From an uncultured Gammaproteobacteria bacterium (GTDB lineage: Bacteria; Patescibacteriota; Patescibacteriia; Magasanikbacterales; GWA2-37-8), in the NCBI GenBank assembly GCA_964482695.1, contig CAYZYP010000002.1, positions 46,962 through 110,961 of the forward strand: a stretch of 64,000 bases of DNA. Reading direction: 5' to 3'. The position numbers and the translations under genes are program-made. Of the stretch, positions 3,638 to 42,000 are shown one piece after another (the stretch's first letter is position 1; every line of letters starts with the position of its first letter). Below the pieces are notes generated by a model that did not search any database, was not told the DNA's origin, and worked only from the letters and a program-made list of their open reading frames with translations.

Positions 3638-3716
3638 TTTTAATAACTAAATATTGAAATATTATATATTGCGTAAATAGCGTGATATACAATATTTGAT
3701 ATTTAATATTTATTTT

Positions 3717-4585: not shown

Positions 4586-4936
4586 ATGAGACACCAAAAG
4601 AAAAAGGTTACTTTGGACAGAAACAAAAGCGCTCGACGCGCGTTGTTGGCGAATTTAGTCGCCAGCCTTGTTTTTCATGAAAAAATTTCCACCACCAAAG
4701 CCAAAGCCAAAGCCCTGCAATCTTTGGTGGAAAAATTGATTACCAAAGCCAAAGAGCAAACTTTGGCCAGTCGCCGAGAAATAAGTAAAACTGTCTATAC
4801 AGAAAATATCATCAAAAAATTATTAGAAGTTATTGGTCCTCGTTACAAAGATAGACATGGAGGGTATACCAGAATTATTAATTTAGGTTATCGTAAAAAT
4901 GATAACGCGGAAAAAGTTCTTATAGAATTTGTTTAA
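4586..4936 (+). CDS. rplQ: 50S ribosomal protein L17
   Basis: Reads MRHQKKKVTLDRNKSARRALLANLV...FHEKISTTKAKAK, typical of L17. Confidence 0.92.
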   Translation: MRHQKKKVTLDRNKSARRALLANLVASLVFHEKISTTKAKAKALQSLVEKLITKAKEQTLASRREISKTVYTENIIKKLLEVIGPRYKDRHGGYTRIINLGYRKNDNAEKVLIEFV

Positions 4937-4946
4937 TTAAAGATTT

Positions 4947-5309
4947 ATGATTAGTAATAAAAAAATAAAAGGAAAATACACTTTGGATGCTGTCGGAGAA
5001 AGCGTGGGCAGGTTAGCTACCAAAATAGCTATGATTTTAATGGGGAAAAACAGCCCTCATTTTACGCCTAATTTAGATAATAAAAACAAAGTTATTATCA
5101 CTAACGTAGATAAAATAAAATTTTCCGGCAAGAAATTAGATAAAAAAGTTTACAAACATCATAGTATGCACCCGGGTGGTTTAAAAATTGTCCCTGCCAA
5201 AAAGGTAATGCAAAGTGATCCTAAAAAGGTTGTTTTAAAAGCAGTTTCTAAAATGTTGCCTAAAAATAAGTTACGCACCGCGCGTTTATTAAGAATTTCT
5301 TTTAAATAA
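4947..5309 (+). CDS. rplM: 50S ribosomal protein L13
   Basis: Contains GRLATKIAMILMGKNSPHFTPNLD..VIITNVDKI. Confidence 0.9.
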   Translation: MISNKKIKGKYTLDAVGESVGRLATKIAMILMGKNSPHFTPNLDNKNKVIITNVDKIKFSGKKLDKKVYKHHSMHPGGLKIVPAKKVMQSDPKKVVLKAVSKMLPKNKLRTARLLRISFK

Positions 5310-5314
5310 AACTT

Positions 5315-5722
5315 ATGACTAATACAGTGATTCAGTCAGAAAAAAAACAGGTAGTCGGCCGACGTAAAACAGCAGCCGCTAGAATTAGAATTAAACCAGG
5401 AACAGGGGAAATAATCGTTAATAATAAAGATTGGAAAAAGTATTTTCCTTCTTCAGAATATCAAACTATTATTTTATCGCCTTTACAAAGCGTTGGAAAA
5501 CTAAAGTCTTTTGATTTTAGCGTCAAAGTAGCAGGTGGTGGCATGAAAGGGCAGGCAGAAGCCCTGCAATTAGGAATTTCCAGAGCCTTGGCTAGTTATG
5601 ACGAAGAACTTAAAAAGACTTTAAAATCTTTGGGGTATTTAACACGCGATCCAAGAGCCAAAGAAAGAAAAAAGCCAGGGCTTAAACGCGCCAGACGCGC
5701 ACCGCAATGGTCCAAACGTTAA
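5315..5722 (+). CDS. rpsI: 30S ribosomal protein S9
   Basis: Contains GRRKTAAARIRIKPGTGEIIVN... and the C-terminal KKPGLKRARRAPQWSKR. Confidence 0.95.
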   Translation: MTNTVIQSEKKQVVGRRKTAAARIRIKPGTGEIIVNNKDWKKYFPSSEYQTIILSPLQSVGKLKSFDFSVKVAGGGMKGQAEALQLGISRALASYDEELKKTLKSLGYLTRDPRAKERKKPGLKRARRAPQWSKR

Positions 5723-5733
5723 ACTTACGTAGC

Positions 5734-5760
5734 AAAGCCTCTAATAAAAGAGGCTTTTTA
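5734..5760 (+). terminator. Rho-independent terminator after rplM-rpsI
   Basis: AAAGCCTC-taataaaa-GAGGCTTT followed by TTTA. Confidence 0.6.
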
Positions 5761-5794
5761 AATTCTTGTTTTTGTTGTCTTTTTAGAGTAAAAT

Positions 5795-7234
5795 ATGTTT
5801 ATGTCTTACTCTGTCGCGCAAAATACATCTTTTTTAACAGTGGCTTCGATTTTACAAAAAATCATTTCTTTTTTTTATTTCGTTTTAATTGCGCGAATCA
5901 TTGGCGTAGAAAGTATTAGCCAATATTTTTTGGCGATTACTTTTTCTTTAATTTTTATAGTTTTCGCTGATTTTGGCTTATCTTCTATTTTAGTTCGTGA
6001 AAGCGCGCGGTATCCCGAAAATACCGAAAGATATTTAAATACTGTTTTATCCACCAAAGTTATTTTCAACCTGTTAACCTATATTTTTTTGCTGGCTACT
6101 GTTAATTTTTTAAATTATTCCGCAGGCACTAAACATTTGATTTATTTAGCTGGCATAACAATGTTTTTCGATAATTTGCACAGCGCTTTTTACGCTGTTT
6201 TTCGCGCGCGAAAGAATCTAATATTCGAATCTATCGGTATAGCTTGTTCGCAAGCTATTACTTTGGTTATTGGCGCTGTTTCTTTGCTAATGGGTTGGCC
6301 TTTATTTATGCTTATCCTTGCTTTTACAATCCCAAGTTGTTTAAATATTTTATATGTCGCCTATTTTGCCGCTAAAAAATTCAAGCTTCGTTATTATTTT
6401 ATTTTTGATTTTAAAATTATTAAAACTTTTTTAATTATGGCTTGGCCGTTTGCTTTAGCGGCGATAATCGGTCGTTTTTACGCTTATAGTGATTCACTGC
6501 TAATGTCCAAAATATTATCAGTTGCCGAACTAGGTTGGTGGAGCGTAGCTTATAAAATTAGCACTGCTTTTCAGTTTGTTCCTGTGGCGCTAGCCGCCAG
6601 TGTTTATCCAGTTTTTAGCAGTCTTTATTTACAGGATAAATTATTGATTAATCAATTATTTGAAAAAACCAGCCGTTATTTATTTTTTATTGTTTTTCCA
6701 ATTGTTTTCGGAATTTTTGTTTTAGCCAAGCCGGCTATTTTGTGGTTATATGGCGAGCAATTTTTACCAGCTGTCTTTCCGCTACAGCTACTGATGATTT
6801 CCTTGATTTTTACTTTTTTAATTTTTATCAACGGTGCTTTGCTTAATGCTATTGATAAACAAAAAATTCAGACAAGCATTACTGCTGGCGCGTTGTTTTT
6901 AAGCATTGTTTTAAATCTTATTTTTTTGCCACGCTTACAGATAGACGGCGCGGCTATTGTCGCTCTATTTACTAATTGTTTATTATTTATTATTGGCTAT
7001 ATCTTTGTAAAATCATATCTAGCTTTGAATTTAAAAAATACATTAGGGTATTTTAACCAAACTTTTTGGCCAGCGCTTATTATGGCTGTCGCGGTATATT
7101 TTTTAGTGGAGAAGATTCATTTTTTATTTACTATTCCAATTGGCGGTGCGATTTATCTGGGTTTGGTATTTTTGCTTGGCGGCATTGATCGAGAGTTGGT
7201 TGTAAGGATAAAAACTAAAATAATAAATAAATAA
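5795..7234 (+). CDS. Polysaccharide/oligosaccharide flippase (Wzx/MurJ-like MOP superfamily), about 12-14 TM
   Basis: 479-aa polytopic membrane protein whose composition and TM layout are typical of the PST family, sitting directly upstream of the GT genes. Confidence 0.65.
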   Translation: MFMSYSVAQNTSFLTVASILQKIISFFYFVLIARIIGVESISQYFLAITFSLIFIVFADFGLSSILVRESARYPENTERYLNTVLSTKVIFNLLTYIFLLATVNFLNYSAGTKHLIYLAGITMFFDNLHSAFYAVFRARKNLIFESIGIACSQAITLVIGAVSLLMGWPLFMLILAFTIPSCLNILYVAYFAAKKFKLRYYFIFDFKIIKTFLIMAWPFALAAIIGRFYAYSDSLLMSKILSVAELGWWSVAYKISTAFQFVPVALAASVYPVFSSLYLQDKLLINQLFEKTSRYLFFIVFPIVFGIFVLAKPAILWLYGEQFLPAVFPLQLLMISLIFTFLIFINGALLNAIDKQKIQTSITAGALFLSIVLNLIFLPRLQIDGAAIVALFTNCLLFIIGYIFVKSYLALNLKNTLGYFNQTFWPALIMAVAVYFLVEKIHFLFTIPIGGAIYLGLVFLLGGIDRELVVRIKTKIINK

Positions 7235-7247
7235 AAATATGAAATTC

Positions 7248-7281
7248 AGATGTTCAAATATATTTGAACATCTGAATTGCG
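7248..7281. repeat. Perfect 34-bp palindrome (17-bp arms, no spacer) between the flippase and GT4 genes
   Basis: ATTCAGATGTTCAAATAT|ATATTTGAACATCTGAAT; no T-run follows, so it is an operator-like or cruciform site rather than a classic terminator. Confidence 0.5.
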
Positions 7282-7299
7282 CTAAAATTAAAAATAGTT

Positions 7300-8412
7300 A
7301 TGAAAACTTTAATTATTACCCTAGAATACCCTCCGCAAATCGGCGGCATTGCTTCATATATATATAACGCGGCGAGTCATTGGCCAGACAATGACCTGCT
7401 CATTTATGCGCCCAAGACAAAACCCACATACGATGAAAATAGTAAGTGGAGAGTAATACGAAAAAAGCCATATTTTACCTTTTTCTGGCCGCATTGGTTA
7501 CGCTTACTATGGCAAATTTGGCGAATAGTTATAAAAGAGCACGTAGAGATAATCCACGTACACCATGTTTTACCTGTTGGTTATGTCGCTTATATTATAA
7601 AAAAAATAAATAAAATTCCTTATTATGTTTTTTTTCATGGCACAGATTTAGAAAAAGCCACTAAAAGTAGATGGAAAAAAAGAATGGCTAAAAAAATTTG
7701 CTTTGCGGCTGATAAAATTATAGTTAACAGCGTTTTTTTGCAAAATAAATTTAAAGATAAGTTTGAAGATTTAAACAAAGAAGTCGTAGTGGTAAATCCA
7801 GGACCCAATGAATTATTTTTAGAGACAATAGCAAATGAAGAAATTAAAAAAATAAAAGCCCAATTAGCCCTAGAAGGCAAAAAGGTAATTATTACAGTAG
7901 CTAGGCTAGCCGAAGCCAAAGGTTATCCACGTTTAATTCATGTTTTACCTGTGATACTTAAAAAAATACCCAATTTAGTTTGGCTGATTATTGGCGATGG
8001 GCCAAAAAAGAAATTGATATTGGATTTAATTCAAAAAAAATCTTTGCAAAATGTAGTTAGATATTTAGGTGAAATAGAGCCAAAATTATTGCCAAAATAT
8101 TATCAAGTTGCCGATCTCTTTGTTTTGCTTTCTCATCCTGATATAGAAGCCGAAGAAGGCTGGGGCACGGTATTTTTGGAAGCGGCCGCTAGCGGATTGC
8201 CGGTTGTGGCTGGAAACGCCGGCGGTGTTAGCGAAACTGTTGAAAATTTAGTTACCGGCCTAATGGTAGATGCTAGTCACGAAGAAGGCGTCGTAAACGC
8301 TGTTGTTGAACTATTGCGCAACGAACAGTATGCCAAACAAATGGGAAAAAAAGGCAAAGAAAGAGTAATAAAAGAGTTTGCCTGGGAAAAACAGATAAAA
8401 AAGATTTTATAA
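7300..8412 (+). CDS. Glycosyltransferase family 4 (GT-B fold)
   Basis: C-terminal EAAASGLPVVAGNAGGVSETVENLVTGLMVD matches the GT1/GT4 E-x7-E region. Confidence 0.85.
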   Translation: MKTLIITLEYPPQIGGIASYIYNAASHWPDNDLLIYAPKTKPTYDENSKWRVIRKKPYFTFFWPHWLRLLWQIWRIVIKEHVEIIHVHHVLPVGYVAYIIKKINKIPYYVFFHGTDLEKATKSRWKKRMAKKICFAADKIIVNSVFLQNKFKDKFEDLNKEVVVVNPGPNELFLETIANEEIKKIKAQLALEGKKVIITVARLAEAKGYPRLIHVLPVILKKIPNLVWLIIGDGPKKKLILDLIQKKSLQNVVRYLGEIEPKLLPKYYQVADLFVLLSHPDIEAEEGWGTVFLEAAASGLPVVAGNAGGVSETVENLVTGLMVDASHEEGVVNAVVELLRNEQYAKQMGKKGKERVIKEFAWEKQIKKIL

Positions 8413-8449
8413 TTAGAATCTGGCGTAACGCATTAACAAAATATTTTTT

Positions 8450-9202
8450 ATGATCAGCATTATTATTCCGGTTTATAACCATGCCCACATCTTGGAACGC
8501 AGTTTATGTTCGGTTTGCGCGCAAACCTATCGGCCGCTTGAAGTGATTATTGTAAATGATGGCAGTACGGATAATTTTGAAAAGGTAATGAGCAAGATAA
8601 TTATGAAGAATATGGAGAGAGGAATAAATAATGAAATAAAAATCAAGGTGATAAATCAAGAAAATAAAGGGGCAAGCGCGGCTAGAAATAGGGGATTTAA
8701 AGAGGCTACAGGTAAGTATGTAATTTTTTGGGACGCGGATACAATCGCCCAGCCAAAAATGCTAGAAAAAATGTTAAATGCTTTACAAAATAATCCATCG
8801 GCTAGTTATGCTTATAGTCAATTTAAATTTGGTTGGAAAAAAATAAAAAGTCATGAATTTGACCCTGATTTACTTAAAAAAATAAATTATATTGATGCCA
8901 CTTCTTTGATTAGAAAAAAAGATTACGTAGAATGTTTTTCCGCCAAAGCCGGACCAGCCTTGGGCTGGGATGAATCACTAAAACGTTTTCAAGACTGGGA
9001 TTTGTGGCTAACAATGTTAGAAAAAAATAAAACAGGCGTTTTTGTGCCCGAAGTTTTATTTAAAAAAATAGTTAGTGGCCGCAAGGGGATTAGCAATTGG
9101 CTGCCCAGTTTTGTTTATAAATTGCCGTGGAAAGGTAAAAAAGTTTTAGAATATGAGCAAACCAAAGAAATAATTTTTAAAAAGCATTTAGACGGCGCAT
9201 AA
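8450..9202 (+). CDS. Glycosyltransferase family 2
   Basis: IIIPVYN....VIIVNDGSTD and DADT resemble the GT2 DXD region. Confidence 0.85.
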   Translation: MISIIIPVYNHAHILERSLCSVCAQTYRPLEVIIVNDGSTDNFEKVMSKIIMKNMERGINNEIKIKVINQENKGASAARNRGFKEATGKYVIFWDADTIAQPKMLEKMLNALQNNPSASYAYSQFKFGWKKIKSHEFDPDLLKKINYIDATSLIRKKDYVECFSAKAGPALGWDESLKRFQDWDLWLTMLEKNKTGVFVPEVLFKKIVSGRKGISNWLPSFVYKLPWKGKKVLEYEQTKEIIFKKHLDGA

Positions 9203-9260
9203 ACATTCTTTTTCGCGCTGCGGACTTCGCCGCGACTGCGAAAAAGAATGTTTATGCGCC
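9194..9260. terminator. Bidirectional palindrome shared by the converging GT2 and ligase-like genes
   Basis: 23-bp arms GGCGCATAAACATTCTTTTTCGC / GCGAAAAAGAATGTTTATGCGCC around a 21-nt GC-rich loop. Each arm also encodes the terminal Gly-Ala-stop of one of the two genes. Confidence 0.55.
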
Positions 9261-10706
9261 TTTTAAGTCGTAACTAATTTTAGTCATTATTGCCGTTAGT
9301 AGAATAATTCCCAAAACATGAAATAAAGCCGGTGAAGTGAGATTGATAATCAAAAGAGAAATAAGCATTGCTAAAATATATCTTTTATTTTTAATCCTAT
9401 ATTTTTTTAATATTAAAAATAAAAGATTAAAAATAAAAGATAACCAAATCAAAAATCCAACCATTCCCATTTCATCAATTATTTCCAAATACCCCCAGTC
9501 AAATTGAGTAGTGGTGATTTCTTTCTTAACGACTGGGCTATAGACAGTAACCGTGTCTCCCAAACCATTTCCCCAAAGTGGTTTTTGTTTTATTTTCTCC
9601 CAAATTTTTGGCAGTAGCATCATTCTTGATAGGGAGCTTTTTTCTATTGAAGGCGAGGCAATACTGCCAATTCGTAAGCCTAATAATTCCCAACCAAAAC
9701 TTTGTCCTCGGCTGGCGGCTAAATGAATAGATGAGAAAATTAAGATAAAAATAAAAATAGAACCAAGAGAATAAATAAGCCAGCGTTTCCAATATTGACG
9801 ACTAAATAAAAATAATAATCCGATCAAATAGGCTAGAATGTAAATACGAGTGAGGTTGAGAGAGAAAATGATAAGTAAAGACAAGATAATAAAATGATAA
9901 AATATTTTATCATTTTTGTCATCCCGAGCCACAGCGAGGGATCTCTGTCCGTTCACATAAGTATAGTTGGTATTTGTAGACAGAGATTCCTCGCTTCGCT
10001 CGGAATGACAGTCCTGTCTTGCAACTATTTGATAAATAAAATACAACAACACCGGCACTAACAACAAATGTTCATTAACTACCATCCGGTAAAAATTATT
10101 ATTTAAGTCAGTTATTTTGCCGCCAACAATATTTCTAAACCAATGATAATAGCTATCTTGCAACACTAAAATGTCAGAAGAATAGCTAATAAAAGTCAGT
10201 AAAACAAAAATTACATTGCCGATAATAGCCGCGCCGAGCATGGCAAAAGCCGTTTGTTTGAATTTTTCCGAATGCCATAACTCACATAAAGGAAAATAAT
10301 ACAAAAAGAAAAAATAGGGGATAGCGTCGGCAAAAATTTGGTGTGGATTATGGCCAGCATAATAACCAAGAGTAGAAGAAATAAAAACGATTAATAAAAT
10401 AGCTGAAAAAAGATAACAGATGATCTTGCTGTCTTTAAAAATTGTTTTGTATTTTTTATTATTTATTATCTGTATTGTATAAATTATTAATGAACAAATT
10501 AACAATAACGTTCTTAATGATGTCGAGTTAATGCTAAAAACCCCGCCCGCCCCGCCCAAAATAATTTCACCGGCAATAATATACCAACCACGTTCGTCTT
10601 TTTTTAAAAGTAAGTAAACAGTTGTGGCGAGTATAATAAAAGATAGAAAATAATTTATATACGACATTTCCGGGCTAAAAAAATACGAAAAAAGACGTGT
10701 GAACAC
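9252..10706 (-). CDS. O-antigen ligase/polymerase-like (Wzy_C-type) polytopic membrane protein carrying an in-frame palindromic-element insertion
   Basis: 484 aa, many TM helices, with a periplasmic-loop motif ...WGNGLGDT... resembling Wzy_C. The segment QDCHSERSEESLSTNTNYTYVNGQRSLAVARDDKNDK is encoded by repeat copy A. Confidence 0.55.
   Translation of the reverse strand: MFTRLFSYFFSPEMSYINYFLSFIILATTVYLLLKKDERGWYIIAGEIILGGAGGVFSINSTSLRTLLLICSLIIYTIQIINNKKYKTIFKDSKIICYLFSAILLIVFISSTLGYYAGHNPHQIFADAIPYFFFLYYFPLCELWHSEKFKQTAFAMLGAAIIGNVIFVLLTFISYSSDILVLQDSYYHWFRNIVGGKITDLNNNFYRMVVNEHLLLVPVLLYFIYQIVARQDCHSERSEESLSTNTNYTYVNGQRSLAVARDDKNDKIFYHFIILSLLIIFSLNLTRIYILAYLIGLLFLFSRQYWKRWLIYSLGSIFIFILIFSSIHLAASRGQSFGWELLGLRIGSIASPSIEKSSLSRMMLLPKIWEKIKQKPLWGNGLGDTVTVYSPVVKKEITTTQFDWGYLEIIDEMGMVGFLIWLSFIFNLLFLILKKYRIKNKRYILAMLISLLIINLTSPALFHVLGIILLTAIMTKISYDLKGA
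9918..10011. repeat. RPE-like palindromic element, copy A (full), in-frame inside the ligase-like CDS
   Basis: Left arm GTCATCCCGAGCCACAGCGAGGGATCTCTGTC, ~30-nt loop, right arm GACAGAGATTCCTCGCTTCGCTCGGAATGAC; homologous to the copies at 26855 and 11441. Confidence 0.8.
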
Positions 10707-10749
10707 GTAAATAAGAAAAAAATAAAATATGTTATATTTACTTATTATA

Positions 10750-11685
10750 TTATAATTTAAAATTATTAAGCTGCTTGTACCCGTTTATAAAATCCTTTGC
10801 TTTCATTGGCTTTTTTCCTTCCATTTGTAATTCTAAAATTTCTATACAGCCGCTATTACAACCGATAAAAATCTTTTCATCTTTATAAACCACTATCTTG
10901 TTTTCTATTTTTGCCTCGGATGGTTTGATTCTTAACAATTTTAATCTTTGATTTTTTACCTCTATATATATTCCCGGCCAAGGCGTTAACCCCCTGTATT
11001 GATTATAAATTTCCTGGGCTGTTTTATTAAAATCAACCAAGCCGTCTTCGCGCTTCAATATCTTGCAAAATGTAGCTTTTTTGTCATCTTGTGGTTTGGG
11101 GGAAATCTTACCGTCTACATAGGCTGGAATAGTGTTTAAAAGCATTTCAGAGGCCATTTTAGCGGCTTTAGCGTGTAAAGTGGTATAAGTGTCATCTGGC
11201 TCAATATTAAGCGTTTTTTGCGCCAAAATCGGCCCATGATCCATTTTTGCGTCAATGAGCATTATACTAACTCCGGTCTGGCTTTCACCATTTATTAAAA
11301 CCGATTGAATAGGCGATGGGCCGCGATATAAGGGGAGTAGAGAAGGATGAATATTGATAGACCCATGTTTGGGAATGTCTATTATATTTTGTGGAATAAG
11401 TAAGCCATAATCTACCACAATGTTTAAATCAATTTTTTTTGTCATCCCGAGGAGGTTCGCACCGACGAGGGATCTCTGTAATTTTTCCGGTTGCTCTATT
11501 TGCAAACCATGTTTTTGAGCCAAAAGTTTTACTGGTGGCAGTTGCAACTCTTGTTTACGCCCAACCGGCTTATCTGGTTGGGTAATAACTAGTTCAACCT
11601 TAACCAAAGGATTATTTATTAACCCTTGTAAAATCACAGTCGCGAAATCACCAGTACCAAAAAAGATGATGCTTATTTTTGTCAT
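10750..11685 (-). CDS. fmt: Methionyl-tRNA formyltransferase, with a short in-frame insertion from a half palindromic element
   Basis: Contains IIFFGTGDFA, HGSINIHPSLLPLYRGPSPIQ and the C-terminal domain. QRSLVGANLLGMTKK in the interdomain linker is encoded by repeat copy B. Confidence 0.92.
   Translation of the reverse strand: MTKISIIFFGTGDFATVILQGLINNPLVKVELVITQPDKPVGRKQELQLPPVKLLAQKHGLQIEQPEKLQRSLVGANLLGMTKKIDLNIVVDYGLLIPQNIIDIPKHGSINIHPSLLPLYRGPSPIQSVLINGESQTGVSIMLIDAKMDHGPILAQKTLNIEPDDTYTTLHAKAAKMASEMLLNTIPAYVDGKISPKPQDDKKATFCKILKREDGLVDFNKTAQEIYNQYRGLTPWPGIYIEVKNQRLKLLRIKPSEAKIENKIVVYKDEKIFIGCNSGCIEILELQMEGKKPMKAKDFINGYKQLNNFKL
11441..11479. repeat. RPE-like palindromic element, copy B (solo left arm) inside fmt
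   Basis: GTCATCCCGAGGAGGTTCGCACCGACGAGGGATCTCTGT is near-identical to the left arm of copy C; no right arm follows. Confidence 0.75.
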
Positions 11686-11752
11686 ATTTTTTAATATTTA
11701 TCAGGGCGGGACATTTCCCGCCCCTACAATTATATCATGTGAATAAAAATAT

Positions 11753-11781
11753 TGACAATTATCGGTTTCAAAGGTATCTTT
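11753..11781 (+). promoter_or_regulatory. Sigma70-like promoter at the left edge of the GC-rich island
   Basis: TTGACA, 17-nt spacer, TATCTT, followed by GGAGGTG (Shine-Dalgarno) and a GTG start. Confidence 0.35.
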
Positions 11782-11808
11782 TACCCAACCAACAACTGGA
11801 GGTGTGAA

Positions 11809-12192
11809 GTGAATAAAAAGCCTGTGTTAGTAGATTGGAAAGAGGCGTACGTAGAGCATGGGGGGCTACTTGTAGTCCCTATCCGCTCCGGAGATGGGAT
11901 GTACCTCGGGGAGCTTCGACTCCAGATGCACGAGAGGAGAACTTCTACCTCGCAGTCGCAACACTGGCATGGGAACATGGATGCCGGCGGCATCTGTATC
12001 ACCCCCGACGAGGAGGCTGCCCGCCGAGCAGCCACCCCGGACTCTGTGCGGCGGGAGGTTGGCCAGTTCGACCCTCCCACCCCCCCTACCATCAGCCCCA
12101 AGGTCGAGGACGCCCTCGACGCCGATCTGGCAAACGGTCCCACGCTTGAGGCCGTACCCTCCGGCCTCAAAGGCGATCCCAGCGGGATCTAG
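11809..12192 (+). CDS. Hypothetical protein encoded in a GC-rich (about 65%) foreign-looking island; no recognisable family
   Basis: GTG start 7 nt after GGAGG. The frame has strongly G/C-biased third positions (GC3) in its distal two-thirds, whereas the overlapping ORFs on both strands lack this. Product: VNKKPVLVDWKEAYVEHGGLLVVPIRSGDGMYLGELRLQMHE...GDPSGI. Confidence 0.45.
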   Translation: MNKKPVLVDWKEAYVEHGGLLVVPIRSGDGMYLGELRLQMHERRTSTSQSQHWHGNMDAGGICITPDEEAARRAATPDSVRREVGQFDPPTPPTISPKVEDALDADLANGPTLEAVPSGLKGDPSGI

Positions 12193-12307
12193 CCCCCCCC
12201 TCCGCTCCCACCCCCACGGTGAGAGCGCGCCCTTCGACTCTCACTAACCATAAATTTTAAAATAATTTAAAGTTTATGGCTAAGAGTCGAAGAAAAAAAG
12301 TTAAAAT

Positions 12308-12340
12308 AAAATATCCCGACGAGAAGTCGGGATATTTTTA
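12308..12340. terminator. Hairpin with flanking A/T runs (bidirectional terminator-like)
   Basis: AAATATCCCGAC-gagaa-GTCGGGATATTTTT. Confidence 0.55.
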
Positions 12341-12349
12341 ATTTTAGTC

Positions 12350-12457
12350 TTTACGCGTCACGCCAGCGGAAAACACTTTTTGAGCGTTCCCGACTTGTTC
12401 GGGACGATTCAAAAAGTTTTTTCCGCTGGCGCAAGGAATAACATTTACGCGTATTTT
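12350..12457. repeat. Long-hairpin repeat family, copy a (conserved tail abuts the def stop codon)
   Basis: Left CTTTACGCGTCACGCCAGCGGAAAACACTTTTTGA, inner hairpin, right TCAAAAAGTTTTTTCCGCTGGCGCAAGGAATAACATTTACGCGTATTTTT. Confidence 0.7.
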
Positions 12458-12458
12458 T

Positions 12459-12950
12459 CTATGCCTCTTTTTTTTCTATCTTTTGCAATTCCTTTGCCTT
12501 CTCAATAAACAAAATTCCATTCAAATGATCCACCTCGTGCTGAATAACTCGCGCCAAAATATCACTGGCTTTAAATTTTATCACCTCGCCATTTTTATTT
12601 AACGCTTCTATTTTTATTTTTTTATACCGCTTAACCTTGCCCCAAATTTCCGGCACTGACAAACACCCTTCCACATCCCATTCTTTAAGTAACGACGCCC
12701 GTTTCCATTTCGGATTTACCAAAACTAAATCTTCTTTTTTTTCTAACGTATAAATTTTTGCGATCACGCAAATAGCCACCGCTTGCCCCACTTGCGTTGC
12801 CGCCAACCCTGCGCCATCGGCTTTTAACATTGTTTCTATCATATTCTTAATCAAACGCTGTGTTTTCTTAACCAAAATTTCCTCTTTGGTGAGAGGTTTG
12901 GTTTTGGTATGGAGAATTGGATTAGGAGTGGTTATTATTGGCAGTAACAT
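12459..12950 (-). CDS. def: Peptide deformylase
   Basis: Motifs GAGLAATQVGQ, EGCLSVP and QHEVDHLNG. Confidence 0.95.
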   Translation of the reverse strand: MLLPIITTPNPILHTKTKPLTKEEILVKKTQRLIKNMIETMLKADGAGLAATQVGQAVAICVIAKIYTLEKKEDLVLVNPKWKRASLLKEWDVEGCLSVPEIWGKVKRYKKIKIEALNKNGEVIKFKASDILARVIQHEVDHLNGILFIEKAKELQKIEKKEA

Positions 12951-12968
12951 AAATAATAAATTAAGTTA

Positions 12969-13138
12969 GCCAACGGAAATTAGGTACTAAATTTCTGTCG
13001 GCAATGGAAGCCCTCGGGAGGGCGACTGAGCGAACTCATAAACCGAGATTTTTTGATTGACGTTGAAGCGAAGGAGTCTTGCCGACAGAAATTTAGTACC
13101 TAATTTCCGTTGGCGCGATGGATATAATTTACGCGCGC
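12969..13138. repeat. Long-hairpin repeat family, copy b (34-bp perfect stem, 74-nt loop, conserved tail)
   Basis: Stem CCAACGGAAATTAGGTACTAAATTTCTGTCGGCAA / TTGCCGACAGAAATTTAGTACCTAATTTCCGTTGG, then tail CGCGATGGATATAATTTACGCGCGC. Confidence 0.7.
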
Positions 13139-13153
13139 TTCTTTGCGAAAACT

Positions 13154-15076
13154 TTACAATTGCAACACTTCATTTGGATTAGGGTCAACCTTCCAATATT
13201 CCGGCACCCCAGAAAGCAACATCTTCACGTCACTTTTATAATTATCATACCTGATTTTTGCCAAAATCACCAGCCAATATTTACCCCCATAAAATTCCGG
13301 CGTGGTTTCCAAAGGACCAGATAATTTAATACCAGATTCGTTTTTTGTCAATTCAGACAATGTTTTAAAAACTTGACCAGCTTCATTTTCAACAACCTGT
13401 TTATTTACGTGGCCATAAAGCAATTTTAACAAAAAACGAAAAGGTGGATAGCCCAATATTTGTCGCCCTTTTAATTCTTGCTCATAAAATTTAAGTGGAC
13501 TACTTAAGGCGGTAAAAACCAAATGGTCAGGATGACTGGTTTGAATTAATAATTCAGCCTGTTTATTTAGTTTGTATTTAGCGTCGCGTAAATTATACCA
13601 CAAATTTTCATTTATTTTGTATTCCGGCACGAAGAGCGAAGTGTCCGCATCCAAAAAAACCATTAATTTTACCTTTTCCCAATCAACAAACGGCCAGGCC
13701 AGTTGCGTGCCAATAATTATTTTATTTCTATCATCACTAGTATTTTTATAAGCCATATCTTTCTGATCGCTATCTATCCGTACTACTTGCGTGTTATTTT
13801 TACCAACCATTAATTTCCTTATTTGATTTTCGGCCAGTTGCGTGCCTGCCCCCAGCATGTTCATGTTTATACCATGACATTTTTCACAATTTCTAGCCAT
13901 AAATTGTTTGTGACCGCAATAATGACAGCGCAAATTATTGTCGTTGTGAAACGTTAAAAGCAAATCACATTTAGGACATTTTAAAACTTGCCCACAATCA
14001 CGACAGCCAACATAGCCAGAAGCGCCTCTTCTGTTGAGAAAAACAAAAATGTCGCCATTTTTTACTTGTAAAATTTTTTCTGTTAATTTATTGCTAAAAC
14101 AACCATAATTGCCATAATGACGCTCGTCGCGCATGTCTATAATATTTATGTCTTGTTTTTTTTCTTTTTCTAAATTTGATTTAAATTTATTGATTGACTG
14201 TTGATTTAAAGTAGAAAGATTTGTAGATAAATATATTTTTTTCTTGGCAAAAAAATATGTTTCCACGCTTGGCGTGTGAGTTAATAAATGCAAAGTGGCG
14301 TTATGCTGTTTGGCCAAAAATAAAGCCGCGTCTCTGGTTTGATACCGTGGGGTCATATCCCAGCTTTTATAATTTGGATTAGATTCGTCCGTTAAAAAAA
14401 TATTTTCTAAATTATGCCACGGTAAAAATAACGCCCGACGCGTGCCAATTATTATTTTTTCACCTTCGTAAATTTGCCACCATTTTTTAAAAAGTTCTTT
14501 AGGGCTTAATTGACTAGAAATTATAATTGCTTTTTTTAACAAAGATTTTGGCAATTTATTTATGCTTTTTAATTCCGGAACTAAAATTAAATTTTGTTCT
14601 TTAACAGCTAAATTTTTTTTTAAATAATCATCCCGTTGTTTTTCTGTTTGATAAATAAAAAGCCTGGGTTTGGCCGTAAAAACAGCTTGTTTCAAGCTTT
14701 TGTTATTTTTAAATTTTAGTTCTAAACTGGCCAATTTCTTTTTTTGCAACGGCGGTAAATTTTCTTTAAGTAAAAATCCCAAAGAAGTGTGGTAAAATTC
14801 TGCCAAATCATTTAAAAAATTAATTTGCGGTAAAGATAATAGGGGACCAGAAAAAATAATTTTGCTAATTGATTTTGTTTTCTTCAATGCTTGTTCTGTA
14901 AAATTTTCTTTTTGTTTTACGGCGGCTATAACGCCAAAAATTTCCTTATTGCGGAAAGGAACAGCTGTTAACTGCCCAACCTTAATACTATCCGCTAATT
15001 CATCCGGCACCAAATAATCCAGCAATGATAAATAACGCGGCATGCGGCGAGGTAAAATAATTTTAGCGATAACCAT
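13154..15076 (-). CDS. priA: Primosomal protein N' (PriA)-like with intact Cys4x2 zinc-binding domain but degenerate Walker A/DEAH motifs
   Basis: Zinc-binding CRDCGQ..CPKC...CHYCGH...CEKC, plus PriA-specific FLNRRG and LDADTSLFVPEY. The Walker A position reads IYQTEKQRDDYL (no GxGKT) and the DExH position reads LTDESN. Confidence 0.7.
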   Translation of the reverse strand: MVIAKIILPRRMPRYLSLLDYLVPDELADSIKVGQLTAVPFRNKEIFGVIAAVKQKENFTEQALKKTKSISKIIFSGPLLSLPQINFLNDLAEFYHTSLGFLLKENLPPLQKKKLASLELKFKNNKSLKQAVFTAKPRLFIYQTEKQRDDYLKKNLAVKEQNLILVPELKSINKLPKSLLKKAIIISSQLSPKELFKKWWQIYEGEKIIIGTRRALFLPWHNLENIFLTDESNPNYKSWDMTPRYQTRDAALFLAKQHNATLHLLTHTPSVETYFFAKKKIYLSTNLSTLNQQSINKFKSNLEKEKKQDINIIDMRDERHYGNYGCFSNKLTEKILQVKNGDIFVFLNRRGASGYVGCRDCGQVLKCPKCDLLLTFHNDNNLRCHYCGHKQFMARNCEKCHGINMNMLGAGTQLAENQIRKLMVGKNNTQVVRIDSDQKDMAYKNTSDDRNKIIIGTQLAWPFVDWEKVKLMVFLDADTSLFVPEYKINENLWYNLRDAKYKLNKQAELLIQTSHPDHLVFTALSSPLKFYEQELKGRQILGYPPFRFLLKLLYGHVNKQVVENEAGQVFKTLSELTKNESGIKLSGPLETTPEFYGGKYWLVILAKIRYDNYKSDVKMLLSGVPEYWKVDPNPNEVLQL

Positions 15077-15145
15077 AAAAATAAAAATCCTAAACTCTAA
15101 ATCCTAAACAAATTTTAATTTAGGCAAGGTTTAGGATTTAAGAAA

Positions 15146-15940
15146 TTAGCTCAAAACAAAATTTGCTACCAAGTATCCTACGCCAAAAGGCGCTTCGTAC
15201 GAGTACTGCTTGTAGGTAAAATCAACATTACGCAAGATTCCCATAAGTATTAGTAAAGATCGAAAACCACATTCCGCGGCTTCTTCGACGAATTTTTTAT
15301 CCAAACGCAACATGCCGGCGGCGTTATTGTTGGCCAAAAGTTCTTGGATCTTGGCGTCAAATTCTGGGCCAGCTGGAGAAAAACCTGCTGGCGCGTCGGT
15401 CTGTAAAGCATGCGACAAATCGCCAGAAGCTATTACCGCCACTCTTTTATTAGATTCCGTTAAGCATTCTTTTAACATATAGCCGAAACCAAGATGCGTT
15501 TTCCAATCTAAATTACAAAAGCCAATTGGAATAATAGCTATTTGTGGCAAATGTTTGGCCAAGTAGTACAATGGTACTGCCGCGCCATGATCTAAATTTT
15601 GCTCGCTTATCATGGCGGCTGGAAAACTTTGGTCCCTGGTGCACTCTCTAATTTTTGAGGTTAAATTCATTTCTCCTTTAAATTTTATTCTGGTTGCTAA
15701 ATCACCGAATTCTTTTAGGTCTGTTTCATATTCAGAGAAATTATTAATTGTAAACGCGTCGTTAAAATAACTACCATGAGGCGAAATAATCAAAATAATT
15801 TCCGGGCGGCTCAAATACAAATCTTCTTCTAGTTGTTCCAAAGCTTGTTTTGTTTGCTCTACCTTTTTTACAGCTTCTTTACCTATGGTTGGGATAAGAA
15901 GCGGCGGGTGGGGGACAAAAGACGCAAAAACTAAAGACAT
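15146..15940 (-). CDS. LigB/class III extradiol dioxygenase-family (MEMO1/AmmeMemo-like) protein
   Basis: N-terminal FASFVPHPPLLIP...SPHGSYF pattern and a size of 264 aa. Confidence 0.45.
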   Translation of the reverse strand: MSLVFASFVPHPPLLIPTIGKEAVKKVEQTKQALEQLEEDLYLSRPEIILIISPHGSYFNDAFTINNFSEYETDLKEFGDLATRIKFKGEMNLTSKIRECTRDQSFPAAMISEQNLDHGAAVPLYYLAKHLPQIAIIPIGFCNLDWKTHLGFGYMLKECLTESNKRVAVIASGDLSHALQTDAPAGFSPAGPEFDAKIQELLANNNAAGMLRLDKKFVEEAAECGFRSLLILMGILRNVDFTYKQYSYEAPFGVGYLVANFVLS

Positions 15941-15954
15941 ATTGTTAGTTATAA

Positions 15955-18171
15955 TTATTTAGTTCCAGCGATTGTTAAATCTTGGGTAGAAATCCATTTG
16001 GCAATTTTATCCGGTTCAACAAAGCGATTGTTATAATCTGAATTACCCATAGTAATTACTACGTATTTTTTATTGTCACTCGTGCTTTTAATTAATAAGA
16101 ATAAAACCGCGCCAGCTTCTTCGGTATAACCAGTTTTGCTAGAAATAATTTCGTAATTACTATTATTAAAGGCTAGGCTATTGGTATTTTTAATCGAAAA
16201 ATAGTGTCCATTTGATGTGCCAAAATCATGTCTTTGTTTCCCCAGAATATTTTTAACATCAAAACTTTTTTCTAAAGAATAAGTAAATAATTTTAGTAAA
16301 TCACGCGGAGTGGAAACATTTTTTTCGCTCAGTCCGCTTACATCATCAAGAGAACTGTTAGAGGCGCCCCACTCTTTGAATCGTTGGTTGATTTTTTCTA
16401 CCAACTGCTTTTCTGTTAATCCAGTGGTTTGCACGGCTAGACGAGCGACGTTATTGTAAGATCCGATAAGCATAGTGTTTAAAACGTCTTTGTTGGTAAT
16501 TTTTGTGCCATCAGTTATCGCCAAACTATAACCTTCGGCGCCGTATTTTTTAGAGTCATAAACACTGGTTTTATTTTGATCAAAACCTTGTTGCAAAATT
16601 TCAAAGCCAACAAAAGTTTTAGTAAACGAAGCTATCGGTCTTTTGGTGTCAATATTTTTACCGGCGATTACTTTGCCGCTTGGATATTCGGCTACTATAT
16701 AAGCTGGCATATTAGTGCCGTATAAATCTTTAACACCAGTGGCCGCGTCACCCAAAAAAGCGTATTGAGTTTTGTTTAAATCAGTAACATCGATGCCACC
16801 AGAATAATAAATCGACTCGCCGTTTAAAATGGTCATGATAGCCGTAGAATCAACAGAAATTACGTTTTCTTTTTTATAACCCATGGCTAAAAAAGTTTTT
16901 TCATCGGCGAATTTTCTTTTTTTACCATCTTCCATGACATAAATATTGTTACTATCTTTGCTTTTAAATAAAGTACCGTCTTTAAATTGCAATGGGGAGT
17001 CAGCTAGTTTAAATTTGTTCAAATCGGCCAAAACATGCTTTTCAATTGTCAAAGTTTTGTAATCTGTTTGTACAATACCTTTGTCGGTAATAGAATAAGC
17101 AACACTATTTTTAATTAAATAATAAGAGTTGTTGTAATCAGTAATTTGATAAATAATTCCCTGGGGAGCGTACTCGACTTCGGTAATGGTAGAACCAATG
17201 GCTAAGCCGATTAAATCATTTTCATTAACAGTAATTATTTCTTCTGGGTTATAACCAATTTTTTTAACAACCGTGTCCGAAGCAAAAGGTCTTAAAGTAT
17301 CATAATCTAATAAATAGGTCGCCTTGGCTGTTTTAAGAAGCGAATAATTAGGAAAAGTTATGTCTGCTCCTAATTTATAATTAGACAATTCAGCGTCAGT
17401 AACAGTAATAATCATTTTGGGATCAGCGCGAGAGATTAAAACTGATTGGTTTTTAAATTTGCGGCGAGTGTTGTTTTGCACCAACCAAACATCGCTAGAC
17501 GAAGCTGATTTAAGCAAAGTGCCATTTGGGTAGCTTATTTGGAACCATTCTTGCCAAATTTTCCAAAAATTTTCATTGCCGTGTAAGTGGGGAGTATAGG
17601 TATACAAAAAGGCTGTTGCCCAACTTTTTGGTATAACAGATTGGCCGTCTATAACCGTTTCTTGATCTTTTTTCTTAACTATCGAAGAGCTTTGATTGTC
17701 GTAATACCAACGCATAAGCCCAGCGGAATTATCTACTTGTTTGCCAAAGCCTTTATATTTTTCTAGTTTTGGGTCGCTGGTATCACAACTGTCGCAAACA
17801 GCATAGCCTGTGGCCCAATCAAGCTGTTTGGCTTCTGGGGTTGGGTCGGTAATCAAACTCTGTTCTTTTTGCAAAGTAACTAATAAATATTTAGGGTTAA
17901 TGTTGTAGTTTTTAGAAGCGTCATAAATAATATCAGCAGCTGTTTTAGGTAATCCTTTGTAATCAACCGTAACATAATTGCTTAAATAGCTATTTTTATT
18001 ATGTAAAAAAGCGCTGATATCATTTCGCGACCAACTATTACAATCTTGAATTTCTTCGTCGGAAACAATAAAGTGCGGGTCAAAGGTAGTGGCGGCTAGA
18101 GTGGTGAAAGGAGAAAATAAAAAAGAAGTTATAATAAAGACATTAAAAATATGGAAAGTTTGTTTTTTCAT
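15955..18171 (-). CDS. Secreted D-alanyl-D-alanine carboxypeptidase (peptidase S11/PBP5-like) with a large N-terminal extension
   Basis: Signal peptide, then SFTK (SxxK), SYN (SxN) and KTG motifs in the C-terminal ~300 aa. Confidence 0.7.
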   Translation of the reverse strand: MKKQTFHIFNVFIITSFLFSPFTTLAATTFDPHFIVSDEEIQDCNSWSRNDISAFLHNKNSYLSNYVTVDYKGLPKTAADIIYDASKNYNINPKYLLVTLQKEQSLITDPTPEAKQLDWATGYAVCDSCDTSDPKLEKYKGFGKQVDNSAGLMRWYYDNQSSSIVKKKDQETVIDGQSVIPKSWATAFLYTYTPHLHGNENFWKIWQEWFQISYPNGTLLKSASSSDVWLVQNNTRRKFKNQSVLISRADPKMIITVTDAELSNYKLGADITFPNYSLLKTAKATYLLDYDTLRPFASDTVVKKIGYNPEEIITVNENDLIGLAIGSTITEVEYAPQGIIYQITDYNNSYYLIKNSVAYSITDKGIVQTDYKTLTIEKHVLADLNKFKLADSPLQFKDGTLFKSKDSNNIYVMEDGKKRKFADEKTFLAMGYKKENVISVDSTAIMTILNGESIYYSGGIDVTDLNKTQYAFLGDAATGVKDLYGTNMPAYIVAEYPSGKVIAGKNIDTKRPIASFTKTFVGFEILQQGFDQNKTSVYDSKKYGAEGYSLAITDGTKITNKDVLNTMLIGSYNNVARLAVQTTGLTEKQLVEKINQRFKEWGASNSSLDDVSGLSEKNVSTPRDLLKLFTYSLEKSFDVKNILGKQRHDFGTSNGHYFSIKNTNSLAFNNSNYEIISSKTGYTEEAGAVLFLLIKSTSDNKKYVVITMGNSDYNNRFVEPDKIAKWISTQDLTIAGTK

Positions 18172-18650: not shown

Positions 18651-18790
18651 TTCTCAGCATTAAATTATTTTTAGACACATCAATTTTGCCCAGCGGCAAA
18701 ATTAACTTAAGTGCTCGGCAAAAATCCCGACTAACGTCGGGACCATGCATTTTTGCCTCGCAAACTCTAAAAATAATTTAATGCTGAGAA
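18651..18790. repeat. Nested-palindrome structured repeat, copy 1 (about 96-nt conserved core inside a locus-specific 22-bp inverted repeat)
   Basis: Outer arms TTCTCAGCATTAAATTATTTTT / AAAAATAATTTAATGCTGAGAA. The core TAGACACATCAATTTTGCCCAGCGGCAAAATTAACTTAAGTGCTCGGCAAAAATCCCGACTAACGTCGGGACCATGCATTTTTGCCTCGCAAACTCT contains two sub-hairpins. Confidence 0.8.
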
Positions 18791-22611: not shown

Positions 22612-23002
22612 TTATATTAAAAAATTTTACAGATAATATTTTTTTGTGGATAACTTCCATTGACCAAGAATAACTTTTCATCTAAACTATCTTTAGTTCT
22701 TTCAAATATATCAAGAGCGGTGCGAGGGAATCGGCCCGACAACCACCCAGCAACCCCCAAAGCGGGGGTGCTAATTCCGAACCCTAAATACAGGGAAAGA
22801 TAAGTTTTGTCTTGTCTACCCGCCTCTGGCGGAGACAAGGCAAAAAACGCTTTTTTAAAAAGGCCTTTTACTCTTTCTTTGTGATATATTTAGGGTAAAG
22901 GGCTTTTTTGTTTTATTATGTAAAAATTGTATTTCCATTCATAGACGGTTTAAGAATTAAAACAATTTAATTTTTAAACCGTCTATGACGGAAGGAGAAG
23001 AA

Positions 23003-25946: not shown

Positions 25947-27305
25947 ATGCTACCAAAACCTAAAAAAATTCGTCAAATTTATTTAGACCACGCCGCAACT
26001 ACCTACACAGAGAAAGAAGTGCTTGATGCCATGTTGCCCTATTTTAACCAAAAATACGGCAACCCATCTTCTTTATACAATACAGGCAGAGAAGCCAACG
26101 GAGAGATAAATAATGCCAGACGAATGGTAGCGCGCATAATCCATGCTTTACCAGAAAATATTATTTTTACTGGTAGTGGCACAGAATCCGATAACCTGGC
26201 AATTTACGGTATTGCCCGCGCCCACGAACAAAAAGGCAAACATATTATTTCTTCCCCCATAGAGCATCACGCTGTGCTGTATCCGCTAGAAGATTTGAAA
26301 AAACAAGGTTGGGAAATTACTTACACAAAGGTGGATAAAAAAGGTTTTGTTGATGCTAAAGAAATTATCAAAAATATTAAAAAAGATACTGTTTTAATTA
26401 CAGTAATGTACGCCAACAATGAAATAGGCACCATAGAATCAATAGCCGAAATCGGCCGGGAAATTTTAAAAATTCGTAAACAAAATAATTCGCCGTATCC
26501 TTATTTTCATACCGATGCTTGTCAGGCAGCCGGCTACTGCGATTTGGATGTCGAGAAACTACACGTAGATTTGATGACAATCAATGGCAGTAAAATTTAC
26601 GGCCCAAAGGGGGTTGGCATGTTGTATCTGCGACGTGGTGTTAAAATTAAACCGCTGATATTGGGTGGCTCGCAAGAAAAGAAATTGCGCGCTGGCACGG
26701 AAAATGTGCCCGGTATAGTGGGGTTTGCCAAAGCTTTTGAAATGGCGCAAAAGAATAGAGAAAAAGAAAGCGCGCGAGTCGCTGGTTTACGAGATTATCT
26801 TTGGCAAAGGATTGAAAAAGAAATTTCAGACGTTCGTCTCAACGGCCCAGTTTTGTCATCCCGAGGAGGTTCGCACCGACGAGGGATCTCTGTCCCGTCG
26901 GACAGTAGGCGACCAGACAGAGATTCCTCACCCTGCGATGGGTTCGGAATGACAAAAACGGATTTTCGTGAATTCTGCAATGACAGTGAACGACTACCTA
27001 ATAATCTCAACGTCACATTCATGAACGTGGAAGGTGAAGCCATGCTCCTATATTTAGATGAATATGGTGTGATGTGTTCCACCGGTTCGGCCTGCACTTC
27101 GGATTCACTAGATCCATCACATGTCTTAACTGCTATCGGATTACCATACGAATACGCTCATGGAAGTTTGCGTTTTAGTTTAGGAAAACGCAACACCAAA
27201 CAAGATATTGATTATTTGATGAAATATTTGCCAAAAATAGTAGAGACTTTGCGCGAAATGTCGCCAGTGAATATGGGGGTTAAAAAACATGCTAAATACA
27301 AATAA
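25947..27305 (+). CDS. iscS: Cysteine desulfurase (IscS/NifS class I) carrying a ~46-aa in-frame insertion from a palindromic element
   Basis: PLP-Lys region SGSKIYGPKG and the active-site loop SGSACTS. The segment VLSSRGGSHRRGISVPSDSRRPDRDSSPCDGFGMTKTDFREFCNDS is inserted between LNGP and ERLPNNLNVTF. Confidence 0.9.
   Translation: MLPKPKKIRQIYLDHAATTYTEKEVLDAMLPYFNQKYGNPSSLYNTGREANGEINNARRMVARIIHALPENIIFTGSGTESDNLAIYGIARAHEQKGKHIISSPIEHHAVLYPLEDLKKQGWEITYTKVDKKGFVDAKEIIKNIKKDTVLITVMYANNEIGTIESIAEIGREILKIRKQNNSPYPYFHTDACQAAGYCDLDVEKLHVDLMTINGSKIYGPKGVGMLYLRRGVKIKPLILGGSQEKKLRAGTENVPGIVGFAKAFEMAQKNREKESARVAGLRDYLWQRIEKEISDVRLNGPVLSSRGGSHRRGISVPSDSRRPDRDSSPCDGFGMTKTDFREFCNDSERLPNNLNVTFMNVEGEAMLLYLDEYGVMCSTGSACTSDSLDPSHVLTAIGLPYEYAHGSLRFSLGKRNTKQDIDYLMKYLPKIVETLREMSPVNMGVKKHAKYK
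26855..26953. repeat. RPE-like palindromic element, copy C (full), in-frame inside iscS
   Basis: Left arm GTCATCCCGAGGAGGTTCGCACCGACGAGGGATCTCTGTC, loop, right arm GACAGAGATTCCTCACCCTGCGATGGGTTCGGAATGAC. Confidence 0.85.
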
Positions 27306-39336: not shown

Positions 39337-39484
39337 TAGACATTCATATTTATCTATTACTAGACACATAGATTTTGCCCAGCGGCAAAATCTATTCAAG
39401 TGCTCGACAAAAATTTTTTCCTTCGGGAAAAAACCATGCATTTTTGCCTCGCAAGCTCTAATAATAGATGAATATGAATGTCTA
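39337..39484. repeat. Nested-palindrome structured repeat, copy 2
   Basis: Outer arms TAGACATTCATATTTATCTATTA / TAATAGATGAATATGAATGTCTA around the core TAGACACATAGATTTTGCCCAGCGGCAAAATCTATTCAAGTGCTCGACAAAAATTTTTTCCTTCGGGAAAAAACCATGCATTTTTGCCTCGCAAGCTCT. Confidence 0.8.
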
Positions 39485-41994: not shown

Positions 41995-42000
41995 AAATAA

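Follow-up and report, generated by a model that had tools for sequence, protein, structure and literature searches.

The stretch of DNA analyzed here (the window) comprises 64 kb of contig CAYZYP010000002.1 from an AT-rich groundwater Patescibacterium, with a GC content of 35.0%. Its minus strand carries fmt (methionyl-tRNA formyltransferase, 10750-11685; Pfam PF00551 and PF02911) and def (peptide deformylase, 12459-12950; Pfam PF01327), both intact and full-length as judged by Pfam, with priA positioned upstream of def, and with Wzy_C and cell-envelope genes also among the neighbors. A first-pass annotation, made from the letters alone, had noted that these two minus-strand genes are separated by a GC-rich island with its own promoter and open reading frame (ORF). 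The separation is real and measures 773 bp from the def stop to the fmt start (11686-12458), and this spacer harbors a GC-rich core (11840-12245) and, overlapping it on the plus strand, an orphan ORF (11809-12192). The window matches a JGI groundwater metagenome contig (3300009296, Ga0103681_1000063, 82.9 kb), and the nearest genomes at species level, compared by fmt, belong to the Patescibacteria (most bear the label Magasanikbacteria), with identities of at most 61%; no fmt relative above 61% identity was found in the genome and metagenome collections scanned.

The spacing of def and fmt was compared across 102 loci encoding fmt relatives, and the suspicion that it is unusual in the window proved justified. 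In most loci with def upstream, in more than 20 relatives, the gap is 2-100 bp (L002-L005, L009-L012, L019, L047, L048, L051-L053 and others) versus 773 bp here. Among the closest relatives, the gaps are 22 bp (L002), 6 bp (L003), 99 bp (L004), 16 bp (L005), 2 bp (L019 and L047) and 27 bp (L048), and the closest of all, with 61% fmt identity, has a tight def-fmt junction. Because the gaps of the relatives are mostly so short, the 773-bp spacer is, on this sequence comparison, genuinely inserted DNA in an operon whose def and fmt ancestrally lay close together. The nearest relative is only 61% identical in fmt, which limits the dating of the insertion. A second copy of the core was found neither in the window nor in the 102 related loci. 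An insertion sequence or miniature inverted-repeat transposable element (MITE) was considered and rejected because of this lack of further copies and because only short inverted repeats, estimated to be at chance level, flank the core; these include an 11-nt pair at 11839-11849 and 12460-12470.

The def-fmt spacer of other bacteria from the candidate phyla radiation (CPR) can also contain genes. Five CPR loci (L006, L008, L014, L054 and L065) have same-strand genes of ordinary GC content within it, which by appearance are TauE/SafE-like membrane protein and DEDD-exonuclease-like ORFs, and in a further locus (L056), the gap is occupied by a zinc-ribbon ORF that runs antisense and has a normal GC content. 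Since other CPR genomes hold inserted genes at this position, the spacer varies across the radiation.

The first-pass annotation had allowed for a chimeric or contaminated assembly, and a compositional break that is sharp at the 3' edge, near 12245, invites the notion that DNA of a high-GC organism was joined to the contig in error. The short independent contig L046 also stops at 12246, and all copies derive from groundwater metagenomes that possibly share reads. Nevertheless, the JGI contig matches window positions 4750-17685, spanning both junctions, with 2 mismatches (10541 and 10549) over 12.9 kb, and L046, an ENA contig assembled with MEGAHIT from run SRR2177951, matches positions 10799-12246 throughout, apart from one mismatched base in fmt (11641). 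The island itself is free of mismatches among the three assemblies (the window, the JGI contig and the MEGAHIT contig), with 0-2 mismatches overall. The island junctions are reproduced by both L001 and L046, the agreement covering both junctions or the left junction, and the ORF product has three identical database members, originating from JGI, ENA and NCBI assemblies. As three assemblies or assemblers show identical junctions, a chimera is unlikely. Moreover, the core is embedded in an ordered series of AT-rich signals and starts inside the ORF with a gradual climb in GC content, and an analogous island, discussed below, is present in an unrelated dataset (L007). Taken together, we regard an artefact as highly improbable, and the first suggestion of a chimera is not upheld.

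The island had been described as about 65% GC. This holds for the 0.4-kb core at 11840-12245, which is 65.5% GC in a fine profile and peaks at 72-76% between 12000 and 12125, but not for the flagged span of 11703-12296, which taken whole is 55.6% GC. GC content climbs gradually on the 5' side of the core and falls sharply near 12245. It is the only GC island of the window, with all other 400-nt bins at or below 46% GC, and the four top tetranucleotide-outlier windows all fall within it, with the core the foremost outlier. The ORF has GC contents at the first, second and third codon positions (GC1/2/3) of 0.69/0.48/0.70, versus 0.43/0.32/0.30 in 48 long native ORFs (z = +4.9/+4.0/+9.8), and the same values in the core are 0.71/0.51/0.73. 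Its codon-adaptation index to host usage is 0.40, compared with 0.70 ± 0.04 for native ORFs (z = −8). A strong third-position bias had been claimed; GC3 is indeed raised (0.70, and 0.73 in the core), but GC1 is equally raised (0.69-0.71). When recalculated, the tetranucleotide and GC3 signatures set the segment apart from its genome, and a codon-position bias is present: the 3-base periodicity of the core is significant (permutation P = 0.0006), with GC2 lowest in the frame of the ORF. These measurements support the conclusion that the segment is compositionally foreign DNA, and horizontal transfer from an unsampled source richer in GC is the most likely origin of the core. As neither a donor nor a homologue was found in any frame, the case for a foreign origin is built on composition and on absence from relatives. 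The "high-GC donor" and the "recent" acquisition of the first-pass annotation are not demonstrable. Given the correlations among GC1, GC2 and GC3, a fresh import from a high-GC genome is expected to have, for this GC1, a higher GC3 than is seen here.

A set of expression signals surrounds the core, with promoters and terminators called by their match to the consensus. On the plus strand, a promoter-like TTGACA-N17-TATCTT (11752-11780, 10/12 consensus positions) faces the ORF and is followed by a Shine-Dalgarno (SD)-like GGAGGTG (11798-11804), 4 nt before a GTG start codon at 11809; a promoter, SD motif and start codon of these sequences had been annotated originally. The ORF is present as well, although its product is 127 residues plus a stop rather than 128 residues. 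Native genes had been said to lack SD motifs for the most part, and GGAGG indeed precedes none of the 57 long ORFs of the window, which makes the motif unusual for this genome; a weak SD 4-mer lies upstream of 4 of the 57, as scored with a crude start-calling script. Downstream of the ORF, the plus-strand transcript would pass a C-rich tract and a hairpin (12204-12228), then a long imperfect hairpin of 68 nt (12229-12296) with a 10-bp GC-rich outer stem and an AT-rich inner stem, and then an intrinsic-terminator-like hairpin with a 13-bp stem and T-runs on each strand (12308-12338), giving a transcript of about 0.55 kb. The inverted repeat at 12229-12296, previously taken as terminator-like, is real but has no plus-strand T-run, and the canonical terminator is the bidirectional one at 12308-12338. 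The core thus appears to provide the bulk of a moron-like transcription unit that is self-contained and lies on the strand opposite to def and fmt. The predicted parts of this unit are a sigma-70-type promoter, a strong ribosome-binding site, the 127-residue ORF and, behind it, hairpins with a bidirectional terminator.

For the minus strand, a palindromic element (12431-12361) with 33-nt arms that are 85% complementary comes after def, and the terminator at 12308-12338 comes next. Further along, a promoter-like TTGTCA-N18-TATAAT with a TG extension (11729-11758, 11/12 consensus positions, -10 box at 11734-11729) faces fmt, and its -35 hexamer shares 5 bp with the plus-strand -35 hexamer, so that the two promoters are arranged back to back. 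The GC-rich hairpin GGGCGGGA-CATT-TCCCGCCC noted in the first annotation is present at 11704-11723 (minus strand, 8-bp stem, 4-nt loop), and if transcription began some 7 nt downstream of this -10 box, the hairpin would lie at the 5' end of the fmt leader. In the mechanism that we propose, transcription of def would stop at the terminator shared with the ORF transcript, and fmt would be re-expressed from the new near-consensus promoter, yielding an mRNA that opens with a 5' hairpin as a plausible stabilizer. As the two -35 hexamers overlap, the divergent promoters probably compete for RNA polymerase. The locus thus looks rewired, with def terminated, fmt independently promoted and the ORF converging on def without overlapping it. 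An uncoupling of def from fmt by the insertion, as was first proposed, is plausible in view of the terminator after def and the 11/12, TG-extended promoter upstream of fmt. The companion proposal of antisense read-through into these genes finds no support in the layout, since the ORF is transcribed away from fmt, and two hairpins and the bidirectional terminator intervene before def.

The product of the ORF had been called devoid of recognizable motifs, and the homology searches agree. The ORF, the three alternative ORFs and the N-terminal fragment had no match in Pfam, PHROGs, NCBIfam or PADLOC, and in a word-indexed search of 5.8 billion proteins, the sole match to the ORF was itself. An exhaustive phmmer search of 1.84 billion representatives returned three tandem-repeat proteins, which were set aside as spurious because their 4-34 repeated stretches inflate the E-values. 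The concatenated alternative frames had no match in the protein collections, and the island had none among PDB sequences, phage and plasmid DNA (including by tblastn) or viral contigs. A single-sequence AlphaFold model has a mean predicted local distance difference test score (pLDDT) of 57.9, with residues 11-40 at about 82 and the remainder below 55; four β-strands are predicted within residues ~6-39, and a Foldseek comparison of the model with the PDB gave no match with E < 0.4. Residues 45-127, for which the prediction has low confidence, are acidic (pI 4.4) with an abundance of Pro, Ala, Gly and Asp. A "GxxVVPI" motif, which we presumed to point to AbrB/MazE (SpoVT-AbrB), provided a lead that no test supported, and a small β DNA-binding domain of this type was rejected, as PF04014 was not detected in the N-terminal fragment at Pfam E ≤ 10 and no PDB sequence or fold matched. 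The predicted product would consist of a small β-rich domain with a long, acidic, low-confidence tail, and it may be a small accessory or interaction protein.

The part of the ORF that encodes this tail has a second property, in that it contains five perfect hairpins with stems of 6-9 bp and loops of 3-7 nt (11980-11994, 12015-12033, 12103-12120, 12146-12170 and 12175-12189). Only 0.76 are expected from dinucleotide shuffling, 0.74 from codon shuffling and 0.85 from synonymous shuffling with the protein held fixed (P ≤ 0.0005). Together with the downstream hairpins, they form the sole such cluster in the 64-kb window. The five are unrelated to each other in sequence, and since their stems are perfect palindromes, the sequence does not tell on which strand they would act. 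The minimum free energy (MFE) of the core has a z-score of −2.1 when folded as the plus strand, of −2.5 as the minus strand, and of about −4.3 with the flanking hairpin. Two further observations were discarded: codon-aligned mirror palindromes, seen in four of the five hairpins, occur in about 49% of codon-shuffled controls too, and a 9-bp long-range helix in the MFE structure (11860-11868 with 12191-12199) is estimated to be at chance level. The hairpins may reflect a function at the RNA level, such as mRNA stabilization or an RNA gene, or may have a mutational origin in the perfection of quasi-palindromes. Under the reading as a coding cassette, the 3' two-thirds of the mRNA, with their many hairpins, probably also have a role as RNA, contributing to stability or to protection from 3'-exonucleases.

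These hairpins raise the notion that the functional product is not a protein but a structured GC-rich RNA of about 0.5 kb, or the DNA hairpins themselves, with the transcript from the 11752 promoter folding into a series of stem-loops and the ORF being open because GC-rich DNA is poor in stop codons. A GC-rich island within an AT-rich genome classically signals a structured RNA. The occurrence of five perfect hairpins where about 0.8 are expected even with the protein fixed, the additional hairpins up to 12431, the MFE z-scores and the fact that the hairpin-bearing part encodes the low-confidence tail are all consistent with this idea. However, Rfam 15 at gathering thresholds, applied to the whole window, had no match in the island region; at E ≤ 10 over 11600-12500, there were only weak chance matches on AT-rich hairpins and none within 11760-12219; and a scan for tRNA and transfer-messenger RNA (tmRNA) found none at the island. 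Furthermore, the stems are perfectly Watson-Crick paired with nearly no G-U pairs, so neither a strand nor selection on an RNA can be deduced from them, the z-scores are modest for an RNA of 390 nt, and there are zero homologues in which covariation could be sought. The codon periodicity also fits the frame of the ORF, and the SD motif and start codon are correctly spaced from the promoter. A product that is RNA or DNA instead of protein thus appears doubtful, though with some chance of being correct.

The same palindromes, perfect and unlike those of RNA, could also have arisen through template-switch "perfection" of quasi-palindromes in a core that is functionless captured foreign DNA with a fortuitous ORF, brought in, for example, by competence uptake and illegitimate integration. 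That the core is an orphan in all frames, that several ORFs overlap in it, that the tail is predicted at low confidence and that the host genome is rich in palindromic elements would fit such an origin. Yet promoter, SD motif, start codon and terminator surround one frame, which is the one with codon periodicity; compensatory features (the fmt promoter and leader hairpin) are present; and a streamlined CPR genome would be expected to purge 0.4 kb of junk that splits an essential operon. We therefore consider functionless DNA a very unlikely explanation.

An island in the same position is present in one other genome, that of the Magasanikiibacteriota nzgw347 (L007; locus GC content of 45%). Here the def-fmt spacer is 537 bp, with a core of about 63% GC at 3510-3880, and contains a 103-residue ORF that is antisense to def and fmt, as in the window, in the same spacer and in the same orientation. 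This ORF is preceded by a promoter-like TTGACA-N17-TATACT (11/12, with a TG extension) and followed, as judged by eye, by a GC-rich hairpin. Its GC1/2/3 is 0.53/0.42/0.93, compared with 0.53/0.39/0.43 for the adjacent fmt and a GC3 of about 0.40 in its neighbors. It is likewise an orphan with no homologue found, it has no excess of hairpins, and its structure model is too poor for use. The islands of the window and L007 have no similarity as protein (BLASTP E ≤ 100) or as DNA, and the fmt proteins of the two are 51% identical in a matrix without clear grouping. Ancestral presence with losses and independent insertions at a hot spot are inseparable for this pair. A second GC-rich ORF fragment is present in L007 at 6601-6818, abutting a 100-N scaffold gap. 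A GC-rich island of about 450 nt (~60% versus 43% for the locus) also occurs in the Daviesbacteria locus L034 at 5560-6000 (and in its metagenome copies L084, L086 and L089). It is not in the def-fmt spacer, contains a 61-residue ORF behind GGGAGGA, has no Rfam match and may represent either an RNA not yet described or one more orphan ORF.

The resemblance between the window and L007 raises the idea that an old antisense gene, lineage-specific and evolving very fast, resides in the def-fmt spacer, or that this spacer acts as a site-specific landing pad, with high GC content kept by selection or by the mechanism of capture and not reflecting a one-off foreign import. Two Magasanikbacteria with fmt proteins only 51% identical each have a GC-rich orphan ORF of 370-400 bp in this spacer, both antisense to def and fmt and both behind a TTGACA-N17 promoter, and the spacer is variable across CPR genomes. 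In L007, GC1 and GC2 are host-like but GC3 is 0.93, which is odd for an ordinary import. On the other hand, the two proteins are dissimilar (BLASTP E ≤ 100), both being orphans; def and fmt are tightly joined in the majority of the relatives sampled, the closest (61%) among them; neither a recombinase nor attC-like cores nor terminal repeats came to light; and there are two cases only, for which the fmt identity matrix gives no clear grouping. An ancient gene or landing pad is, on this balance, unlikely. A more specific form is quite unlikely. In it, Magasanikbacteria would repeatedly capture unrelated GC-rich orphans at the def-fmt spacer, in one orientation and with a near-consensus promoter, and the hairpin-laden product of the window copy would function as a novel structured RNA, or the gene would work through RNA and protein alike.

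Comparisons with known systems help to place the island. Phage "morons" and units like them are autonomous promoter-ORF-terminator cassettes that have entered an operon between its genes, and the island resembles them in being a small ORF with its own promoter and terminator (by consensus) and an atypical composition, located between genes that are adjacent in relatives. It differs in lacking a prophage context and any PHROG or phage match, and in the orientation of its ORF against the flanking operon. Acquisition of foreign DNA is ordinary for Patescibacteria, as horizontal gene transfer, genomic islands and competence genes are documented in groundwater members (PMC12455944), and natural competence has been shown experimentally in Saccharibacteria (PMC10633639). 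L007 belongs to the nzgw series of metagenome-assembled genomes analyzed in the former study, which reports transfers between Patescibacteria as the majority (PMC12455944). Like the islets described there, the island has an atypical GC and tetranucleotide composition, is absent in relatives and resides in a groundwater CPR host. Unlike them, it comprises one gene only (0.4-0.8 kb) and lacks a donor, a mobility gene and any boundary formed by a tRNA or repeat, and its GC excess of +30 points far surpasses our expectation for a transfer from one Patescibacterium to another.

Integron cassettes, often small ORFans with an imperfect palindrome (attC) behind them, also come to mind, as the orphan ORF of the island is small and has an imperfect palindrome of 68 nt downstream. 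A regular-expression search of either strand of 11686-12458 found no RYYYAAC...GTTRRRY core pair, and an integron cassette was rejected; in addition, the island cassette has its own promoter and is not part of an array, and there is no integrase among the neighbors examined. The clustering of GC-rich hairpins intergenically at gene ends recalls repetitive extragenic palindromic (REP) sequences, bacterial interspersed mosaic elements and Rickettsia palindromic elements, and the host genome also has palindromic repeat families, as well as an in-frame 43-bp repeat in fmt. Unlike such repeats, the hairpins of the island are unrelated in sequence, and the core is single-copy in the window and the 102 loci. 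Finally, a GC island of a few hundred nucleotides with excess hairpins and its own promoter and terminator is shared with GC-rich noncoding RNA genes (RNase P RNA, tmRNA and large noncoding RNAs), from which the island differs in its lack of an Rfam match, its codon periodicity and ribosome-binding site, and its perfect palindromic stems without G-U pairs.

Based on all of these comparisons, the reading that best fits the locus is an orphan ORF cassette, acquired horizontally and transcribed independently, that splits def from fmt, with compensatory rewiring of fmt; to this reading we assign about an even chance. Several observations weigh against it. The climb in GC content from 5' to 3' starts gradually at the 5' end of the ORF, so this end may be native, in which case the gene would be chimeric. 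Four long ORFs overlap here, the three additional ones (104-129 residues) having been found as first described, and this is the chance expectation in DNA of 65% GC. Two-thirds of the product is predicted at low confidence, and neither a donor nor a homologue appeared in any frame across the protein, phage, plasmid and viral searches. The promoters and terminators that define the cassette are consensus matches only, and the three copies of the island are identical, leaving zero variation from which selection could be gauged. Furthermore, the synonymous sites are arranged into perfect hairpins beyond what the protein requires. Since this excess persists with the protein fixed, it points to a constraint at the nucleotide level or to a mutational process, and a purely protein-coding interpretation is weakened.

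Other features of the window also concern repeats and RNAs. An identical 43-bp GC-rich repeat, TTTTGTCATCCCGAGGAGGTTCGCACCGACGAGGGATCTCTGT, occurs at 11437-11479, in-frame in fmt, and at 26851-26893, inside a cysteine-desulfurase-like ORF (25947..27305), and resembles an insertion into essential genes in the style of Rickettsia palindromic elements. The O-antigen-ligase-like ORF 9252..10706 contains a similar-looking "CHSERSEESL" insert. The palindromic element at 12361-12431, just downstream of def, and another at 12969-13114, just downstream of priA and with 36-bp perfect arms, share the ends TTCCGYTGGCG and a similar 3' flank, and look like a REP- or MITE-like family. A second repeat family (18659-18782 and 39348-39473, 82-88% identical) contains the palindrome TTTTGCCCAGCGGCAAAAT. 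A tRNA at 42000-42074 on the minus strand (59.9 bits, Rfam) adjoins a tRNA-Val and is reported by ARAGORN as "tRNA-???", its anticodon (tt) not being readable, and an S-adenosylmethionine (SAM-I) riboswitch lies at 22705-22806 on the plus strand (55.6 bits, above the gathering score).

The def-fmt pair is among the most conserved gene pairs of bacteria, and a foreign cassette of a single gene has apparently broken up and rewired the operon in this genome. A def-fmt operon rewired in this way would represent, for a streamlined CPR genome, a small and clean case of an insertion that is tolerated and compensated for by a minimal genome. The hairpin cluster in synonymous sites constitutes an unusual nucleotide-level constraint or mutational signature inside an ORF. 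Were the spacer a landing site, it would indicate an unrecognized process of site-specific capture or gene birth in CPR bacteria, possibly involving the DNA of GC-rich hosts. Recurrence of such islands, if true, would mean a hot spot for, or capture of, GC-rich DNA in episymbionts, and may offer a handle on their hosts.

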